A DNA stretch of 24,000 nt from an uncultured Oscillospiraceae bacterium (GCA_964369475.1 CAYJFK010000020.1:13370-37369); one strand, 5' to 3'; positions 2,943 to 23,140 are shown, numbered from the stretch's first letter. Made by a program: numbers and translations. Notes: generated from the sequence alone by a model not told the origin.

Positions 2943-2998
2943 CAAATTAAGTATATTTTATTGTATTATTCACATTGTGTCAATGCGGAGGTTTTTTT

Positions 2999-3595
2999 AT
3001 GACAAAGGGCGAAAAGAAAAAGATGGAAGTCTATAATTTTATAAGAGACTTTATGGAAGATCAGGGTGTCCCCCCCACAACAAGGGAGATTGGCGACGGT
3101 GTTGGCTTAAAGTCGACCTCGACTGTTTTTATGTATATAAAAAAGCTCGAGGCAGATGGGCTGCTCGGCGGCAGTAGCGGCAGAAAAAGGGGCGCAATGC
3201 CGACAGAAAAAAGAGAGCCCTCGGCATATATCCCCATGCTCGGAACGGTAACGGCAGGCCAGCCAATTTTAGCTATCGAAAGCCACGAGGAGACAGTGCC
3301 TGTCGACCCATCATTTGTTAGAGGCAGAGAACTCTTTGCCCTAAAAATAAAGGGCGACAGCATGATAAATGCAGGCATTTTAGATAAAGACACAGTCTTT
3401 GTAGAACGCACCCCCGACGCAAGAAACGGCGAAATAGTAGTAGCCCTAATAGAAGACGAAGCAACGGTAAAGCGCTTTTACAAAAAAGAAAACGCCTTCT
3501 GGCTAATGCCCGAAAACGATGCCTATCAACCGATCATTGTGGAAGAAGTTGTTATTTTAGGCAAAGTGGTGGGGCTTTTTAGGGATTTTATATAG
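2999..3595 (+). CDS. lexA: LexA repressor (SOS regulator, S24 peptidase)
   Basis: Start placed at ATG 2999 (MTKGEKKK...) with GGAGG 8 nt upstream; the track ORF begins at 2975. N-terminal winged HTH (PPTTREIGDGVGLKSTSTVFMYIKKLE), Ala-Gly cleavage site (VTAGQP), catalytic Ser (KGDSM) and Lys (VKRF). Confidence 0.93.
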   Translation: MTKGEKKKMEVYNFIRDFMEDQGVPPTTREIGDGVGLKSTSTVFMYIKKLEADGLLGGSSGRKRGAMPTEKREPSAYIPMLGTVTAGQPILAIESHEETVPVDPSFVRGRELFALKIKGDSMINAGILDKDTVFVERTPDARNGEIVVALIEDEATVKRFYKKENAFWLMPENDAYQPIIVEEVVILGKVVGLFRDFI

Positions 3596-3613
3596 CAAAA
3601 TCGGAGATTTTGC

Positions 3614-3783
3614 AGGTAAGAAGTAATAGTGAATAAGTAACAACTATGGTGGAAAAACCAAAGGTTTTTCAATAATATATTCAATACTTAATTGCCAACG
3701 GCAATTAAGTTACCATACTTATTACCTATTCACTATTACTTATTACTTAACTTATTCACTTCTTCACTATTACTTATTACTTA
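3614..3783. repeat. Foldback unit 1L: arm - module B - module A - arm' (arm' doubled)
   Basis: Arm AGGTAAG AAGTAAT AGTGAAT AAGTAAC AACTATG G (3614-3649). B is GAAAAACC-AAA-GGTTTTTC (3652-3670). A is CTTAATTGCC-AAC-GGCAATTAAG (3687-3709). The inverted arm spans 3710-3783 with about 10 heptads. Confidence 0.85.
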
Positions 3784-3803: not shown

Positions 3804-4160
3804 ATGAAGGACAGTGAACTTACCCGTCAGTCGGTAGAGCTTTCTGTTTGTATTGTGGAATATTATAAGTGGCTTGTTTATGAGAAAAAAGAATTTGTTA
3901 TGTCTAAGCAGCTACTTAAAAGTGGAACAAGTGTTGGTGCGAATATTCACGAGGCTTTTTATGGAGTTAGTAAGGCAGACTTTATTTCCAAAATGCAGAT
4001 AGCTCTAAAAGAGTGTGCAGAAAGTGAGTATTGGCTCATAATCTTAAAACGCACAAACTATTTTGATATTAAATTTAACCAATTGGAAAACTATATAAAA
4101 TCCCTCAAAAAAATGCTAATATCCACATTAAATACTTCAAAAAAAAGCTTCAATGAGTAA
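3804..4160 (+). CDS. Four-helix-bundle protein (23S rRNA intervening-sequence protein family, PF05635/TIGR02436-like; Avd-like fold)
   Basis: 118-aa ORF with GAGGAG RBS at 3790-3795. The core LLKSGTSVGANIHEAFYGVSKADFISKMQIALKECAESEYWLIIL matches the family signature (QLxRSxxSIxANIAEG...DFxxxxxIAxGSxxEtxYWL). Confidence 0.85.
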   Translation: MKDSELTRQSVELSVCIVEYYKWLVYEKKEFVMSKQLLKSGTSVGANIHEAFYGVSKADFISKMQIALKECAESEYWLIILKRTNYFDIKFNQLENYIKSLKKMLISTLNTSKKSFNE

Positions 4161-4178
4161 TAACTCATTGAAGCTTTT
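4143..4178 (+). terminator. Hairpin spanning the stop codon of the four-helix-bundle gene
   Basis: 15-bp perfect stem AAAAGCTTCAATGAG (4143-4157) / CTCATTGAAGCTTTT (4164-4178) with loop TAATAA containing the stop. A-run and T-run sit inside the stem ends. Confidence 0.5.
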
Positions 4179-4314
4179 TAAGTAAAAAGTAATAGTGAAT
4201 AGGTAATAAGTATGGTAACTTAATTGCCTGTGGCAATTAAGTATTTTATATTATATAGAAAAACCTTTGGTTTTTCCTCCATACTTCTTACTTCTTCACT
4301 ATTACTTATTACCT
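4179..4314. repeat. Foldback unit 1R: arm - module A - module B - arm'
   Basis: Arm AAGTAAA AAGTAAT AGTGAAT AGGTAAT AAGTATG G. A is ACTTAATTGCC-TGT-GGCAATTAAGT (4218-4242). B is GAAAAACC-TTT-GGTTTTTC (4258-4276). The inverted arm spans 4277-4314. Confidence 0.85.
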
Positions 4315-4334
4315 GCAAAATCTTCGATTTTGCC

Positions 4335-6389
4335 TTATACCTCCGTTATAACCGGCAGTATCATTGGGCTTCTCTTTGTTTTATGATAAATATAGCCCGA
4401 AAGTGCATTCTTTATAGCGCTCTTTAGTGCGCCGAATTCGATTGGCATCATGGGGAGGGTTTTGTCTAAGGCGGTGCGTAGTGCGTCGTGTGCGCCGTCC
4501 ATTAGATCCTCTGATTCCTTAACAAATACAAAGCCTCTCGAAACGAGCTCGGGTTGGGAGACAAGCTCGCCTGTGGCACGGTCTACTGTCAAGGCTACAA
4601 CTACAAGGCCGTCCTCGGCGAGGTGCTTTCTGTCACGAAGGACAACACTGCCAACGTCGCCGACACCTATTCCGTCTATAAGCACCTTGCCCGAAGGCAC
4701 TGTACCGTTTAGCTTGCAGCTGTTTGCCGTCATTTCTATAACTCGGCCTATCTCGGAAACAAAAATTCTGCTCTCGTCTATGCCCATTAATTTTGCTGTT
4801 GCAGCGTGGGCAACGAGGTGAGAGTATTCGCCGTGTATCGGAATAAAATATTTCGGCTTTGTAAGTGCCAAAACGAGCTTTTGTTCCTCTTGCGAGGCAT
4901 GGCCCGAAACGTGAACCTCTGCTTGTTTTGTCGTTATTACCTCTGCGCCCCTTTTAAGAAGTCCGTTTATAACCTTGGAGACAGTCTTTTCATTGCCGGG
5001 GATTGGAGAGGCCGAAATAATAACAAGGTCGTCTGGCCCAACTTCAACATTCCTGTGCTCACTCGCCGCCATTCTTGAAAGAGCCGACATGGGCTCGCCC
5101 TGACTGCCGGTAGTAACGAGCACAACACGGTGTGGCTCGTAGTCCTTAATGCGGTCTATGTCTATCAAAATGCCTTCTTCCACATCGATAACACCGAGAG
5201 CAATTGCGGCATTAACATTGTTGATCATAGAGCGACCCGAAACAGCGACCTTTCGTCCTTGCTTGGAGGCGGCATCTATTATCTGCTTAACCCTGTGAAT
5301 GTTAGAGGCAAATGTCGTAACTATAATACGTTTTTTTGTCGTCTCGAAAAGGCGGTCGATGGCACGGGCAACAACATGCTCGCTCTTTGTGTGTCCTGCC
5401 CTCTCGGAATTTGTCGAGTCGGAAAGAAGTGCCAAAACACCCTTTTTACCAAGCTCGCCAAGGCGTGCAAGATCTATCATCTCGCCGTCTATCGGGGTCG
5501 TGTCAATCTTAAAGTCGCCTGTAAATATAATGCGGCCGGCAGGTGTTTCTATGCCGAGCATACATGCATCGGGAATGGAGTGGTTGGCACGAATTATCTC
5601 GACCTTAAAAGAGCCTAAGGTAAGCACATCGCCGTATTCTACTTGATATAGCTCGGTAGTGGCGGTAAGCTTGTGCTCGTCGAGCTTGTTTTTAACAAGT
5701 CCGCATGTAAGCCTTGTGCCGTAGACAGGCGCATTAACCTGCTTTAAAAGGTAGGGTATGCCGCCCGTGTGGTCTTCGTGACCGTGGGTAATAACGATAC
5801 CACGGAGCTTGCTTGCGTTGTTTACCACATAGGTAAAATCGGGTATAACAAGATCGACTCCGGGCATAGAATCGTCGGGGAAGGCTATGCCGCAGTCGAG
5901 CACAAGCATGTCGTCGCCGCACTCGATTACAGTAAGGTTTTTGCCGACCTCGTGCAGTCCGCCAAGCGGGATAATGCGTAGCTTGGAGGAGTTGTCTGTC
6001 TTTAGTGCGGGCGAGCGCTTTAGAATATTTTGCGGCACTCTCGGTGCGGCAGGTTGTGGGGCTTTTCTTGTAGTCATTATCTTGGCACCGCCACGGCGCT
6101 TGTTATTTCTTCCCTTGTTTTGACCGCCCTGACCATTAGATCCTTGTCCACCCTGACCGCTCGTCTTGGTCTGATTTGTATTTGCAGGGGCTGTGCCCTC
6201 TGCTTGCTTGTTTTGCGCCTCGGGCTTTTTCTTAGGCTGAGAGCCGCCCTGTTTGCCGCCTCTCTTGCCTCTGCCTCCCTCGGGCTTTTGAGCGCTCTCT
6301 CCTCTTTTGTCGAAAATAGAGGGCATAACCTCTCCCACATTTTGGGTAGAAGGCCGAGCCTTGCGCTTGGGTTTGTTGTCTTTGTTCAT
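4335..6389 (-). CDS. rnj: Ribonuclease J (metallo-beta-lactamase/beta-CASP) with a ~130-aa basic low-complexity N-terminal extension
   Basis: 684-aa ORF. Contains LRIIPLGGLHEVGKNLTVIE, the HxHxDH motif (ITHGHEDHTGG) and the beta-CASP and C-terminal domains. An alternative internal start at M105 (ATG 6075-6077) would give a canonical ~580-aa protein. Confidence 0.9.
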   Translation of the reverse strand: MNKDNKPKRKARPSTQNVGEVMPSIFDKRGESAQKPEGGRGKRGGKQGGSQPKKKPEAQNKQAEGTAPANTNQTKTSGQGGQGSNGQGGQNKGRNNKRRGGAKIMTTRKAPQPAAPRVPQNILKRSPALKTDNSSKLRIIPLGGLHEVGKNLTVIECGDDMLVLDCGIAFPDDSMPGVDLVIPDFTYVVNNASKLRGIVITHGHEDHTGGIPYLLKQVNAPVYGTRLTCGLVKNKLDEHKLTATTELYQVEYGDVLTLGSFKVEIIRANHSIPDACMLGIETPAGRIIFTGDFKIDTTPIDGEMIDLARLGELGKKGVLALLSDSTNSERAGHTKSEHVVARAIDRLFETTKKRIIVTTFASNIHRVKQIIDAASKQGRKVAVSGRSMINNVNAAIALGVIDVEEGILIDIDRIKDYEPHRVVLVTTGSQGEPMSALSRMAASEHRNVEVGPDDLVIISASPIPGNEKTVSKVINGLLKRGAEVITTKQAEVHVSGHASQEEQKLVLALTKPKYFIPIHGEYSHLVAHAATAKLMGIDESRIFVSEIGRVIEMTANSCKLNGTVPSGKVLIDGIGVGDVGSVVLRDRKHLAEDGLVVVALTVDRATGELVSQPELVSRGFVFVKESEDLMDGAHDALRTALDKTLPMMPIEFGALKSAIKNALSGYIYHKTKRSPMILPVITEV

Positions 6390-10313: not shown

Positions 10314-10407
10314 GTTTTAACCATCCATTCTAAAATATATATTATCGCCTGTGCGACAACTTTATAATACTATCTATATCTACCCAAAATATCAAAAAGA
10401 GCAAGCA

Positions 10408-10617: not shown

Positions 10618-10716
10618 AAAAAGTGCTCCTTTTTAGGCAATTACAAATAAACGCTTCTCTGCAATTATATATATTATCATATGTAGGGAAAAAATTCAAG
10701 ATAAATATAATAAATT

Positions 10717-10980
10717 AAGAACTATATAAGTAAGAACTATACTAAGTAATAGGTAATAGTGAAGAAGTAATAACTATGGAAAAAATTGCTTGCGCAATTT
10801 TAATTATATTCGGAGCTAAACCCCAACGGGGTTTAGCGGATAAGCAAAAAAACGCTATGCGACATTTTGTCGCATAGCGTTTTTTACCCTCAAATTGCCA
10901 AAGGCAATTTGATATTTCTAATATAAAAGCGGTAGCTTTTACACCATAGCTCTTACTTCTTACTTATTACTTATTACTTA
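10717..10980. repeat. Heptad-armed foldback element 2: arm - F - G - C - D - E - arm'
   Basis: Arm AAGTAAT AGGTAAT AGTGAAG AAGTAAT AACTATG G (10744-10779), preceded by partial arm duplications. F spans 10782-10801, G 10815-10837, C 10846-10885, D 10891-10911, E 10925-10940. The inverted arm spans 10944-10980 (5 heptads). Confidence 0.85.
10846..10885. terminator. Bidirectional intrinsic terminator (module C), downstream of the ABC operon
   Basis: A7 - CGCTATGCGACA - TTT - TGTCGCATAGCG - T6. Confidence 0.7.
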
Positions 10981-10989
10981 AAAACCCTC

Positions 10990-13530: not shown

Positions 13531-13612
13531 ATTTGAGAGCCTTTGTCAAGTGCTTTTGAGAAAATTTTTTAAACTGGAAAAATCAGTCAAGCTTATCGTG
13601 GGATTAGTTAAG

Positions 13613-13655
13613 CAGTAACTAAGAAGTAATAAGTATGGCATAAAAGCTCTGCTTT
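13613..13655. repeat. Solo/degenerate half copy of the foldback element (arm + E-like hairpin)
   Basis: AGTAACT AAGAAGT AATAAGTATGG arm-like sequence followed by AAAAGC-TCT-GCTTTT. No matching inverted arm. Confidence 0.5.
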
Positions 13656-13733
13656 TAATTTAAAAATGCCGTGGTATCTTAAAAATATTACTGTACACAT
13701 TTCACAAAAAAATCACACAGTTACAAATAACCA

Positions 13734-14484: not shown

Positions 14485-14811
14485 AAAAATTGCTTTGGCA
14501 ATTTTTAGGTAATAGGTAATAGTGAAGAAGTAAGAGGTAATAGTGAATAAGTAATAAGTATGGTAACTTAATTGCCTTTGGCAATTAAGTATTAAATATT
14601 ATATAGAAAAACCCCAAAGGGTTTTTCTGCCATACCTAGTACTTCTTGCCTAAGTAAAAAAACGCTGTGCGACAATATGTCGCACAGCGTTTTTTTACTC
14701 TCAAATTGCCAAGGGCAATTTGATATGTTTAATATAAAAGCGGTAGCTTTTACACCATAGTTATTACTTCTTCACTATTACCTATTACTTCTTCACTCTT
14801 ACCTCTTACTT
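14485..14811. repeat. Heptad-armed foldback element 3: F - arm(8 heptads) - A - B - degenerate arm' - C - D - E - arm'(8 heptads)
   Basis: F spans 14485-14506. Arm AGGTAAT AGGTAAT AGTGAAG AAGTAAG AGGTAAT AGTGAAT AAGTAAT AAGTATG G (14507-14562). A spans 14565-14589, B 14606-14627, C 14656-14696, D 14702-14722, E 14736-14751. The inverted arm spans 14755-14811. Confidence 0.85.
14656..14696. terminator. Bidirectional intrinsic terminator (module C) between the convergent lipoprotein and comEA genes
   Basis: A7 - CGCTGTGCGACA - ATA - TGTCGCACAGCG - T7. Confidence 0.7.
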
Positions 14812-15252
14812 TAAAAAAACCACAAACTCCAAAAGCCCCTCCAAGACCTTCTCCCCAATGCCGGAGACCGCCAGTAAATCTTCTGCCTCGCTGTATGGCC
14901 TGCCCTCTATAATGCGCTCAGCTATTGTCGGGCCTATGCCGGGGAGGGTGTCGAGTAGGTCGGCAGGGGCGCTGTTTATGTCTATCTTGCCGTCTATTAT
15001 ATACTGCGGTGGCGTAGTGTCGTTTTGCTCCGACTGCACTAAAGTGCCGTCTCCATAGCCGACACGATTGCCGCCCAAAAGGAGCATGGCAAGGCAAGAG
15101 CATAGCAAAATGGCAAAGAGCACAAGATAAAACCCAACAGACCCTCGCCTTACCGCCCTTTTCTCGGGCAGAGGTGAGGCCGTATGGCCTCCCTCGTCTT
15201 TGCTCATGAGCAGCGATATATAATGCTCCGAGTCACGCTTGTTACTATCCAC
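14806..15252 (-). CDS. comEA: ComEA family helix-hairpin-helix DNA-binding protein
   Basis: 148 aa, GTG start with GGGGGTG RBS and one TM helix. C-terminal HhH repeats (INSAPADLLDTLPGIGPTIAERII...LLAVSGIGEKVLEGL). Confidence 0.85.
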   Translation of the reverse strand: MDSNKRDSEHYISLLMSKDEGGHTASPLPEKRAVRRGSVGFYLVLFAILLCSCLAMLLLGGNRVGYGDGTLVQSEQNDTTPPQYIIDGKIDINSAPADLLDTLPGIGPTIAERIIEGRPYSEAEDLLAVSGIGEKVLEGLLEFVVFLK

Positions 15253-22157: not shown

Positions 22158-22185
22158 TAAAAAAGAGGGGCAACCCTCTTTTTTG
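22158..22185. terminator. Intrinsic terminator
   Basis: A6 - AGAGGG - GCAA - CCCTCT - T5. Confidence 0.75.
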
Positions 22186-22215: not shown

Positions 22216-22244
22216 TTGCGTTTTTATCCGAAATGGGGTATAAT
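22216..22244 (+). promoter_or_regulatory. Promoter firing directly into foldback element 4
   Basis: TTGCGT (22216-22221), 17-nt spacer, TATAAT (22239-22244). The left arm of the element starts at about 22249-22253. Confidence 0.55.
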
Positions 22245-22248
22245 GATT

Positions 22249-22389
22249 AAAGAAGTAATAAGTAATAGTTAAGAAGTAATAAGAATGGTAACTTAATTGA
22301 CGTTGGCAATTAAGTATTGAATATAATATTAGAAAAACCCAAAGGTTTTTCCACCATAGTTATTACTTATTCACTCTTACTTATTACCT
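22249..22389. repeat. Heptad-armed foldback element 4: arm - A - B - arm' (minimal form)
   Basis: Arm AAGTAAT AAGTAAT AGTTAAG AAGTAAT AAGAATG G (22253-22288). A is CTTAATTGAC-GTT-GGCAATTAAG (one mismatch). B is GAAAAACC-CAAA-GGTTTTTC (22332-22351). The inverted arm spans 22354-22389. Confidence 0.85.
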
Positions 22390-22408
22390 AAAAAAGGGGG
22401 TTCTTATT

Positions 22409-22639: not shown

Positions 22640-22931
22640 AAACATCCCCGGAAAAACATACGAGATAATCGGACTTGCAAGGGGGTCTACCGTGCAGTCT
22701 AAAAACTTCGGCAAGGACATTATGTCGGGACTTAAAGGCCTTGTCGGCGGCGAAATATCGGCATATACCGAAATGATGAACGAGGCAAGGGCAATAGCGA
22801 CAAAGCGCATGGTAGAGGATGCCCAAATGCAAGGCGCAAATGCCATAGTAATGATGCGCTACTCCTCCTCCGCTGTAATGCAATCAGCAGCTGAGGTAAT
22901 AGCATATGGTACGGCGGTTAGGATACTTTAG
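22620..22931 (+). CDS. ybjQ: YbjQ family protein (UPF0145, heavy-metal-binding domain)
   Basis: 103 aa. MILTTTENIPGKTYEIIGLARGSTVQSKNFGKDIMSGLKGLVGGEISAYTEMMNEAR... is the canonical YbjQ pattern. AGGAGG RBS. Confidence 0.88.
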   Translation: MILTTTENIPGKTYEIIGLARGSTVQSKNFGKDIMSGLKGLVGGEISAYTEMMNEARAIATKRMVEDAQMQGANAIVMMRYSSSAVMQSAAEVIAYGTAVRIL

Positions 22932-23140
22932 TTTTAAGTAAGAGTGAAGAGTGAAGAGTGAAGAGTTATGGTGAAAAATTGCTGAGGCAATTTTTGGTTT
23001 TATATAATAATAAAGGGCGGGCACCTTTGGTGCCCGCCCTTTAGCTTAGAGAAAAACCTTTAGGTTTTTTATTGTATCAAATACTTAATTGCCAAAGGCA
23101 ATTAAGTTACCATAACTCTTCACTCTTCACTCTTCACTAA
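22932..23140. repeat. Heptad-armed foldback element 5: arm - F - G - B - A - arm'
   Basis: Arm AAGTAAG AGTGAAG x3 AGTTATG G (22936-22971). F spans 22974-22995. G is AAAGGGCGGGCACC-TTT-GGTGCCCGCCCTTT (23012-23042). B spans 23051-23070, A 23083-23107. The inverted arm 23110-23138 is a perfect 29/29 complement of 22943-22971. Confidence 0.88.

Follow-up and report, generated by a model that had tools for sequence, protein, structure and literature searches.

Inverted heptamer arrays enclosing short hairpins form a dispersed intergenic repeat family in an uncultured Oscillospiraceae bacterium and recur beside PF05635 genes

The repeat described here occupies positions 10743-10980 of a 24,000-nt stretch of DNA, hereafter the window, from an uncultured Oscillospiraceae bacterium (GCA_964369475.1, CAYJFK010000020.1:13370-37369). 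This repeat, element 2, is one copy of a dispersed family devoid of open reading frames (ORFs); six related copies lie in other gaps between genes of the window, so that the 24 kb hold seven copies, every one of them intergenic, with four gaps occupied from stop codon to stop codon, or almost. The family is defined by its arms, which are inverted arrays of 7-bp units (AGTAATA/AGTGAAG type) ending TATGG...CCATA. Between the arms lies a slot for one to five short perfect hairpins, two of which, module C and a GC-rich hairpin of element 5, have the sequence of intrinsic terminators. Comparable arrays accompany genes of the PF05635 family in several phyla, and the window elements may well be ORF-less miniatures of PF05635 cassettes that would fold into a long stem carrying a terminator and other hairpins.

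The first-pass annotation, made from the sequence alone, had described a mosaic of hairpin modules at this site, and the element does stand there: within 10743-10980 the five perfect hairpins F, G, C, D and E stand between two inverted tandem arrays of 7-bp units (Table 1). When 10712-10988 was folded, 10743-10779 paired with 10945-10980 on either strand, with the five hairpins between them; the minimum free energy was -103.6 kcal/mol on the + strand (z -11.4) and -109.4 kcal/mol on the - strand (z -12.6), and none of 200 shuffled sequences folded as well. What the annotation had not stressed is the tandem nature of the arms: Tandem Repeats Finder (TRF) detects period 7 at every arm in the window, with 3.4-9.9 copies and with super-periods of 14 and 21 bp as well. 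A 15-bp tandem duplication forms the outer left edge of element 2 and overlaps the start of the left arm, 10716-10742 being outside the paired part. Folded alone, modules A and B reach -13.3 and -7.1 kcal/mol (Table 1 gives the values for the modules of element 2), and the copy of module C in element 3 (14657-14697) reaches -29.3 kcal/mol. Module F recurs at 14485-14506 (loop TTTG) and at 22974-22995 (loop TGAG); module E is unchanged in element 3, and its stem recurs with loop TCT in the solo half-element (13640-13655).

Module C, with A7, a 12-bp stem, T6-7 and a predicted energy of -26 to -29 kcal/mol, is a putative bidirectional intrinsic terminator, as had been proposed, and on both strands its GC-rich stem runs straight into a U-tract, the form of a Rho-independent terminator. 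It stands where a terminator is needed, downstream of the ABC-2 permease gene on the - strand, that is, at the end of the ABC operon (element 2), and between two convergent genes (element 3). A terminator scan found no other terminator-like site in these two gaps. This simple scan did not list module C itself, probably since under its rules the tracts of A and T pair with each other and lengthen the stem. The GC-rich hairpin of element 5 (GGGCGGGCACC-TTT-GGTGCCCGCCC, -28.7 kcal/mol) was scored as terminator-like on the - strand, which is the strand of the aminotransferase gene; element 5 extends exactly from stop codon to stop codon of two convergent genes.

The link with PF05635, the 'four helix bundle / 23S rRNA intervening-sequence protein' family, begins within the window. 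The gene at 3804-4160 is the sole protein gene enclosed by window repeats; its product matches PF05635 over the full length of the model, and its closest solved relative is the pentameric PDB 2RLD (1e-29). Elements 1L and 1R flank this gene as an inverted repeat of 162 nt (90%), and 1L, gene and 1R together fill the entire gap from the lexA stop codon to that of the RNase J gene. Among 36 PF05635 loci (L188-L192, L195-L204 and L217-L237), period-7 (or 14/21) arrays were found within about 300 nt at 29, representing at least four phyla. In the first sample, which covered Clostridia, Cyanobacteria, Spirochaetota and Bacteroidota, 13 of 15 loci had arrays and 11 had a significant inverted repeat between the 300-nt flanks; in an independent sample from IMG/VR, arrays adjoined the gene at 16 of 21 loci, on both sides at 13, with a significant flank-to-flank inverted repeat at 14. 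The background count is 33 arrays in 1.11 Mb, in a background that is itself enriched for such elements. The arrays are usually inverted with respect to each other, and the unit is a different sequence at each locus (Table 1, in which the plasmid loci of other phyla are those found by tblastn). Two layouts recur, array-gene-complementary array and [array-x-array]-gene-[array-x-array], and the window cassette has the second. Cassette-bearing contigs also hold arrays without an ORF, including a full arm-hairpin-arm element at 10995-11165 of L192. Because PF05635 cassettes elsewhere have like arms and ORF-less arrays alongside, the window elements are, we infer, most simply derived from such cassettes as ORF-less miniatures.

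Some cassettes split single functional units, as at L198, L199, L200 and L202 (Monoglobus, Chondrinema, Anabaena and Pseudanabaena). Cassettes placed in this way look like selfish insertions, which may explain the reported 'association' of PF05635 with CRISPR. Two human-gut scaffolds from a phage collection (L203 and L204) have hairpins interleaved with GTGATAT-type units instead; at 340-600 of each, as at 1870-2080 of L046, a rumen Clostridia contig found via the AATTGCC scan described below, the motif AGTGATATT or CAGTGAAATT alternates with small GC hairpins.

A scan of metagenome contigs with the arm pattern returned at least 120 loci, and among the matches listed five are true relatives of the window elements (L072, L102, L125, L138 and L163), having in common the arm units and the TATGG/CCATA inner ends. 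In four of the five the interior consists of unrelated perfect hairpins, such as AAAACTC-GAA-GAGTTTT, which stands alone in L163, and GGTTTGC-GTCA-GCAAACC in L102; L125 has no clear interior hairpin. The unrelated sequences argue for the hairpins as such: across organisms the interior is a slot for hairpins of nearly any sequence, and this is the best support for the core idea of the first-pass annotation, that the hairpins themselves are under constraint. The same pattern gave 12 matches in viral contigs, none of them real.

Within the window, the claim that stems are conserved and loops free was borne out. With all copies placed in a common orientation and scored against the consensus of each module, deviations amount to 4/350 in stems (1.1%), 16/62 in loops (26%) and 11/104 in the linkers between modules (11%), so that stems and loops are far from changing at equal rates; the nominal Fisher p values, 3e-11 for stems versus loops and 3e-5 for stems versus linkers, are not true probabilities, since the copies are related. 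Evidence for compensation is thinner. Module C does differ between elements 2 and 3 by a compensated pair, A-T to G-C (CGCTATGCGACA/TGTCGCATAGCG versus CGCTGTGCGACA/TGTCGCACAGCG, loops TTT and ATA), and module B has an extra C-G pair in element 3 as compared with element 4 (GAAAAACCC-CAAA-GGGTTTTTC versus GAAAAACC-CAAA-GGTTTTTC). Two of the four stem deviations make up the compensated pair of C; the third, in A of element 4, is uncompensated, and the fourth is a wobble in B of element 5, where a G-C pair has become G-U on the + strand and A-C on the - strand. Compensatory evolution therefore has in its favour a single substitution pair, seen in two copies, and a symmetric indel; an uncompensated change and a G-U/A-C change tell against it. 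Between elements 2 and 3 the stems differ by 2 changes in 56 nt (the compensated pair) and the unpaired positions by 8 in 46 nt. The covariation expected from the annotation did not appear in the five-copy alignment of the arm-A-B-arm unit: 92.6% of the cells pair, no pair has changed on both sides and column shuffles do equally well, and the stems are therefore conserved rather than covarying.

Intrastrand template correction can produce 'compensated' double changes in a single event, as is established for quasipalindromes. The stem pattern fits selection for hairpins, and it also fits such correction of perfect palindromes; the stems may be intact because the hairpins are needed, because perfect palindromes correct themselves by intrastrand templating, or both. 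As to whether the hairpins would be constrained as RNA or as single-stranded DNA, perfect Watson-Crick palindromes that are nearly free of G-U pairs and fold alike on the two strands do not discriminate RNA from DNA. On the whole, the first-pass observation was largely correct and its interpretation is partly supported.

The further claim, that constraint lies on the hairpins rather than on any linear sequence, is contradicted by the core of the modules. The hairpin AATTGCC-N3-GGCAATT, reported seven times, is exact at six sites (3690, 4222, 10893, 14570, 14704 and 23087; expected 0.00), and all seven loops agree with those listed (AAC, TGT, TTT, GTT, AAA, AAA and AAG; for module A in a common orientation, TGT, GTT, TTT, GTT and TTT). 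The seventh copy, at 22297 in element 4 (loop GTT), is imperfect; it reads AATTGAC...GGCAATT, and the uncompensated C>A mismatch weakens the hairpin from -13.3 to about -3.9 kcal/mol, a rough comparison in that the folded stretches were framed differently. The core AATTGC/GCAATT is common to modules A, D and F and invariant in all three types; exact hairpins of this type number nine in the window versus one in 761 kb of loci not selected for them. It recurs in other phyla: exact AATTGCC-N3-GGCAATT adjoins heptamer arrays in L008 (Deltaproteobacteria), L025 (Elusimicrobia), L050 (Bacteroides) and L035 (an unclassified bacterium), that is, at 4 of 65 hairpin-selected loci, well over the background array rate. 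These array-adjoining sites are at 1285-1445 of L008, 310-365 and 1270-1355 of L025, 13-95 of L035 and 3366-3466 of L050 (Bacteroides cellulosilyticus); the stem of module A is complete in the L008 hairpin, and an F-like hairpin, AAAAATTGC, is present in L025. The 65 loci, obtained by a scan of genome contigs with YYWAATTGCCNNNGGCAATTWRR, are about as many as estimated for chance, and none of them aligned with the window elements past the hairpin core. The AATTGC hairpin is ruled out as a universal partner of heptamer arrays, given that it occurs once in the 761 kb and that the other PF05635 cassettes examined lack it. A separate GC-rich repeat family was seen in the Spirochaetales metagenome-assembled genome (MAG) Gx481_bin132 (L002, L011, L018, L022, L027, L044, L047, L051, L057 and L058), where chains of different hairpins all have the AATTGCC-N3-GGCAATT core and outer stems that covary (CCT/AGG, CTA/TAG, GGT/ACC, CGG/CCG, GCT/AGC and others); many of these copies are at contig ends.

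The order of the modules, described as shuffled, proves to be largely the outcome of inversion and nesting, with modules present in different combinations. B-A and A-B differ in orientation and are not a reordering: 1L (3589-3750) is the reverse complement of 1R (4178-4339), and since all modules are palindromes an inverted A-B unit reads B-A. Likewise, B-A in element 5 aligns with the other copies solely as reverse complement, and the 'G' of that element, the GC-rich hairpin given above, is not homologous to G of element 2 (CTAAACCCC-AAC-GGGGTTTAG). Element 3 has the reported order A-B-decayed arm-C-D-E, with an additional F hairpin outside its left arm (14485-14506). It is best read as an F hairpin, an arm-A-B-arm unit with a decayed right arm (14628-14655) and then C-D-E-arm, which matches the right part of element 2 at 89-90% identity; the element represents a nesting or fusion of two unit types, not the result of free shuffling. 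The arms give a comparable picture. In elements 3 and 5 the best match of each arm is its own partner, and the arms of 1L, outer as well as inner, pair with their counterparts in 1R. In element 2 the left arm (10744-10779) has clearly diverged from the right arm of the same element, yet over 36 nt it shows 100% complementarity to the right arm of element 3 (14755-14790); this suggests that arms of different elements recently recombined or underwent conversion. When all copies are turned the same way, module B has the loop TTT in 1L and 1R and (C/T)AAA in elements 3, 4 and 5, the outcome that inversion of a palindrome spacer ('flip-flop') would be expected to produce.

How such elements could be tolerated at gene ends is suggested by better known insertions. 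The stem of an rRNA intervening sequence is cut out by RNase III. Correia/NEMIS (Neisseria miniature insertion sequences) and enterobacterial repetitive intergenic consensus (ERIC)-type transposable elements of the miniature inverted-repeat kind (MITEs) have terminal inverted repeats that pair in mRNA, lie at gene ends and affect processing and termination. By analogy, the window elements would most plausibly work like the latter group. A transcript of a neighbouring gene would enter the element, and the arms would pair, in the manner of a Correia element or an rRNA intervening sequence, into a duplex of 30-60 bp; the hairpins inside would stop or stabilize the transcript, and the RNA would be terminated or processed. 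This would insulate the insertion from neighbouring genes and allow it to be tolerated at their very ends, and the mosaic may have arisen by inversion of whole units, by nesting of one unit beside or inside another and by recombination or conversion between the repetitive arms.

Several observations weigh against these elements being cassette miniatures that act through RNA. The RNA-level mechanism is drawn by analogy, covariation in the five-copy alignment is minimal, and G-U pairs are almost lacking from the stems, which are perfect Watson-Crick palindromes. Most mismatches between 1L and 1R are transversions, and no mark of a transcribed strand was seen in an ungapped comparison of the arms in which several elements were mis-registered. 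No target-site duplication was seen in the flanks by eye, the outer T- and A-runs being complementary and part of the inverted repeat. Heptamer arrays are lacking at 7 of the 36 PF05635 loci, and we know of no catalytic or mobilizing activity of PF05635 proteins. Copies in the source genome were counted within the 24 kb. Finally, the nearest relatives by release factor 1 (RF1), L186 and L187, retain the DUF951-RF1-Sua5-CoaE-SLT-RNase J block and have different neighbours at the element positions, and no empty site was found; no heptamer arms or arrays and no PF05635 gene were found in their 42 kb.

Stems that are perfectly Watson-Crick, hence identical on both strands, would also suit an element that acts as DNA. 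Here the arrays would be cooperative protein-binding sites, three units corresponding to about two helical turns, and the palindromes would serve as dimer sites in double-stranded DNA or be extruded as single-strand hairpins or cruciforms; both arrays and palindromes would be recognized, by a host protein or by the PF05635 pentamer, in transposition, recombination or copying linked to replication, and effects on transcription, if any, would be by-products. We consider this somewhat unlikely, yet it accommodates the TRF super-periods of 14 and 21 bp, the AATTGC/GCAATT core conserved as sequence in three module types and found in exact form beside arrays in L008, L025, L050 and L035, and the B loops, TTT in 1L and 1R versus AAA in elements 3, 4 and 5, as from spacer inversion. 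The placement of a gene between inverted copies of a genome-wide repeat also mirrors the layout of repetitive extragenic palindromic (REP) doublets and their associated tyrosine transposases (REPIN-RAYT; PMC3116915). Less easily reconciled with action as DNA are the lack of any nuclease or recombinase domain in the PF05635 protein, as judged by its Pfam and TIGR02436 matches, the flanks devoid of a visible target-site duplication and the unrelated interior hairpins of the metagenome relatives. Moreover, the heptamer units differ wholly between loci at which the protein is 40-70% identical, which is awkward for sequence-specific binding.

A still less probable account is that the elements are neutral, decaying selfish repeats, of use neither to the host nor to themselves, in which intrastrand template switching keeps the stems by erasing a change or by copying it into the opposite arm, thus mimicking compensation, while loops and linkers, having no template, drift. 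Two compensated events set against one uncompensated change and one wobble would be compatible with this, as would the visible decay (the arm at 14628-14655, the solo half-element at 13609-13660 and the broken A hairpin of element 4) and the absence of the elements from the nearest relatives. Neutral decay would leave it hard to understand why the elements supply the sole terminator-like hairpins in several gene gaps, why the architecture is kept across phyla and tied to one gene family, and why the arms of elements 3 and 5 are still 89-100% complementary. A structured cis-regulatory RNA or small RNA gene (a riboswitch, leader or regulatory small RNA with the hairpins as functional domains) is very improbable: strong predicted folding and the position of element 4 directly upstream of a ribosome-binding site would be in keeping with it, against which stand the lack of conserved unpaired sequence, the variable module content, the placement of copies in either orientation and for the most part at the 3′ ends of unrelated genes, and the lack of an Rfam match at the gathering score (L20_leader, 29 versus 58.7 bits). 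Riboswitch, small RNA and CRISPR readings as such are ruled out by the Rfam result, by the two orientations and by the lack of repeat-spacer structure.

Comparison with known systems leads back to the view of the elements as cassette miniatures. No Rfam family matches at the gathering score, the best sub-threshold E value being 0.04 or worse and the bit scores far below the cut-off. According to Ralph & McClelland (1993), as cited in PMC3936711, 23S rRNA intervening sequences carry a PF05635 ORF in Leptospira, Coxiella and others. Like these, the window cassette has its PF05635 gene inside complementary flanks able to form a long stem, and the insertion is tolerated within a transcription unit; unlike them, it lies between lexA and the RNase J gene and not in rRNA, which an Rfam search found to be absent from the window, its flanks are 7-bp arrays with hairpin modules, and ORF-less copies are dispersed. 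With the MITEs the elements share terminal inverted repeats: the arms of element 3 are 63 nt long and 89% complementary, those of element 5 are perfect arrays, and those of element 2 pair. No transposase domain of a possible parent insertion sequence was found among the 20 window ORFs scanned against Pfam, the gene enclosed by arms being PF05635 alone. In contrast to Correia/NEMIS and ERIC, the window elements have no TA duplication, related insertion sequence or sequence similarity, and their arms are tandem repeats of variable copy number, not a fixed terminal inverted repeat.

The resemblance to REPIN-RAYT and to bacterial interspersed mosaic elements (BIMEs) and BOX elements (PMC3116915, PMC3733652) resides in short palindromic, intergenic units that form mosaics of variable order and orientation, and, for REPIN-RAYT, in a single small gene between inverted repeat copies. 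That gene is a Y1 transposase in the RAYT systems, whereas the analogously placed gene here is PF05635/TIGR02436 and encodes a four-helix bundle protein. REP units are palindromes of 20-40 nt with a GTAG or CGTC head (PMC3733652); the window modules begin ACTTAATTGCC, GAAAAACC, CGCTATGC and similar, none with either tag, and nothing in REP, BIME or BOX corresponds to the heptamer-array arms. Heptamer repeats are over-represented in many bacteria, Xanthomonas having 186 GGGAATC arrays with 70-75 convergent inverted pairs (PMC4692102), and Beggiatoaceae, Cyanobacteria and Bacteroidetes have TAACTGA arrays, which are often located just before a start codon (PMC4679880); neither paper mentions PF05635 or interior hairpin modules. 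The window arms, with TRF period 7 throughout, resemble these and the cyanobacterial short tandemly repeated repetitive (STRR) sequences in being tandem 7-bp units in intergenic DNA, and differ from them in unit sequence; the G-quadruplex idea cannot apply to the A/T-rich units of the window.

It is possible, and we offer it tentatively, that PF05635 genes with inverted 7-bp arrays constitute a widespread, undescribed selfish cassette whose arms insulate it in operons and rRNA, and that intergenic heptamer repeats are its miniatures. Such a cassette would extend at least to Clostridia, Cyanobacteria, Bacteroidota, Spirochaetota and IMG/VR contigs, and its miniatures would include STRR, the GGGAATC pairs, the TAACTGA arrays and the window elements. 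PF05635 is functionally uncharacterized, is found inside rRNA intervening sequences and cas loci and is homologous to Avd, the accessory protein of diversity-generating retroelements (PMC3936711, PMC10053308, 10.1101/2024.02.27.582315, PMC10910872). A full-text literature search, with subscription literature outside it, found no paper linking PF05635 with heptamer repeats. In the narrow sense, the present data add a new bacterial intergenic mosaic repeat family, in an uncultured Clostridia genome, that fills whole gaps and appears to supply terminators, which matters for annotation of this lineage and for MAG assembly. More broadly, the arms join a very common small protein family, with solved structures and an unexplained role, to the excess of 7-bp tandem repeats in bacterial intergenic DNA, which has been noted since 1990 and is still unexplained. 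The cross-phylum association of heptamer arms with PF05635 genes is the most valuable outcome; if the link holds genome-wide, binding of the arrays, insulation by RNase III and movement of the cassette become directly testable.

Table 1. Repeat elements, hairpin modules and PF05635 loci. Positions are those of the window; energies (kcal/mol) are for modules folded alone.
Feature	Position	Strand	Details
Element 1L	3589-3783		outer hairpin GCAAAATC-GGA-GATTTTGC, arm, B, A, long arm (~10 heptamers)
PF05635/TIGR02436 gene, between 1L and 1R	3804-4160	+	118 aa; PF05635 E 4.7e-24; TIGR02436 9.9e-27
Element 1R	4175-4339		arm, A, B, arm, outer hairpin
15-bp tandem duplication	10716-10749		TAAGAACTATACTAAG x2.2; TRF score 61
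Element 2, left arm	10743-10779		7-bp array TAAGTAA TAGGTAA TAGTGAA GAAGTAA, ending ..CTATGG
Element 2, module F	10782-10801		AAAATTGC-TTGC-GCAATTTT, AATTGC core; -6.5, z -3.2
Element 2, module G	10815-10837		GCTAAACCCC-AAC-GGGGTTTAGC; -15.3, z -4.0; single copy in window
Element 2, module C	10847-10885		A7, 12-bp stem CGCTATGCGACA/TGTCGCATAGCG, loop TTT, T6; -26.2, z -9.3
Element 2, module D	10890-10912		TCAAATTGCC-AAA-GGCAATTTGA; -12.0, z -5.1
Element 2, module E	10924-10941		TAAAAGC-GGTA-GCTTTTA; -6.2
Element 2, right arm	10945-10980		CCATAG then TTACTTA x4; period 7, 4.0 copies, 95% matches
Solo half-element	13609-13660		one arm ending TATGG + E-like AAAAGC-TCT-GCTTTT
Element 3	14485-14816		F, arm, A, B, decayed arm (14628-14655), C, D, E, arm; between convergent genes
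Element 4	22248-22395		arm, A (C>A mismatch), B, arm; right end abuts ribosome-binding site of next gene
Element 5	22931-23140		arm (AGTGAAG x3.9, 100% matches), F, GC-rich terminator-like hairpin, B, A, arm
Module B copies	3652-3670, 4258-4276, 14606-14627, 22332-22351, 23053-23072		
L188 (clostridial)			AGTGAAG-type units upstream
L189 (clostridial)			arrays both sides
L191 (clostridial)			ATGAAGA x4 + hairpin upstream, mirror image downstream
L192 (clostridial)			GTAAGAG-type units upstream, TCTTACT x6 downstream
Euhalothece plasmid			CCAGTTA x6 upstream, ACTGGTC x12.6 downstream
Treponema saccharophilum plasmid			41 units upstream, CTCTCCG x11 downstream
Bernardetia plasmid			ATTAGTG x15 upstream, TCACTAA x5 downstream
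Monoglobus plasmid			arrays both sides; between hsdS and hsdR
Chondrinema plasmid			arrays both sides; between RND adaptor and permease genes
Anabaena plasmid			arrays both sides; between cas2 and cas1
Nostoc punctiforme plasmid			AAGTCGG upstream, ACTTCCG downstream
Pseudanabaena plasmid			arrays both sides; next to cas1

By its gene content the window represents housekeeping DNA of a Clostridia chromosome, with genes for an amidohydrolase, LexA, RNase J, CoaE, Sua5, RF1, an ABC transporter, a ComEA-like protein, a DEAD-box helicase, methionyl-tRNA synthetase (MetRS), an EamA transporter, YbjQ and an aminotransferase. Its RF1 shares no more than 78-81% identity with the next relatives, which have Clostridia, Oscillospiraceae or Ruminococcaceae names, and this marks the source as an isolated lineage. 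Element 4 (region 22239-22400) lies between a TATAAT hexamer resembling a -10 box (22239-22244), spotted by eye at a place where the promoter scan listed none, and the ribosome-binding site of a small ORF that precedes ybjQ; it may form the 5′ untranslated region of a small ORF-ybjQ operon. A separate canonical terminator precedes it at 22159-22184. A further terminator-like hairpin, GTTGTCGCACAGGCGATAAT, is present on the - strand at 10341-10360, just upstream of the RF1 start; it has TGTCGCACAG in common with the module C stem of element 3 and could be a remnant of module C or a coincidence. Upstream of lexA (2975-3595), GAACAAATGTTTGC at 2905-2918 adjoins a TGCTATAAT -10 box and is probably a Gram-positive SOS (Cheo-type) box serving lexA autoregulation.

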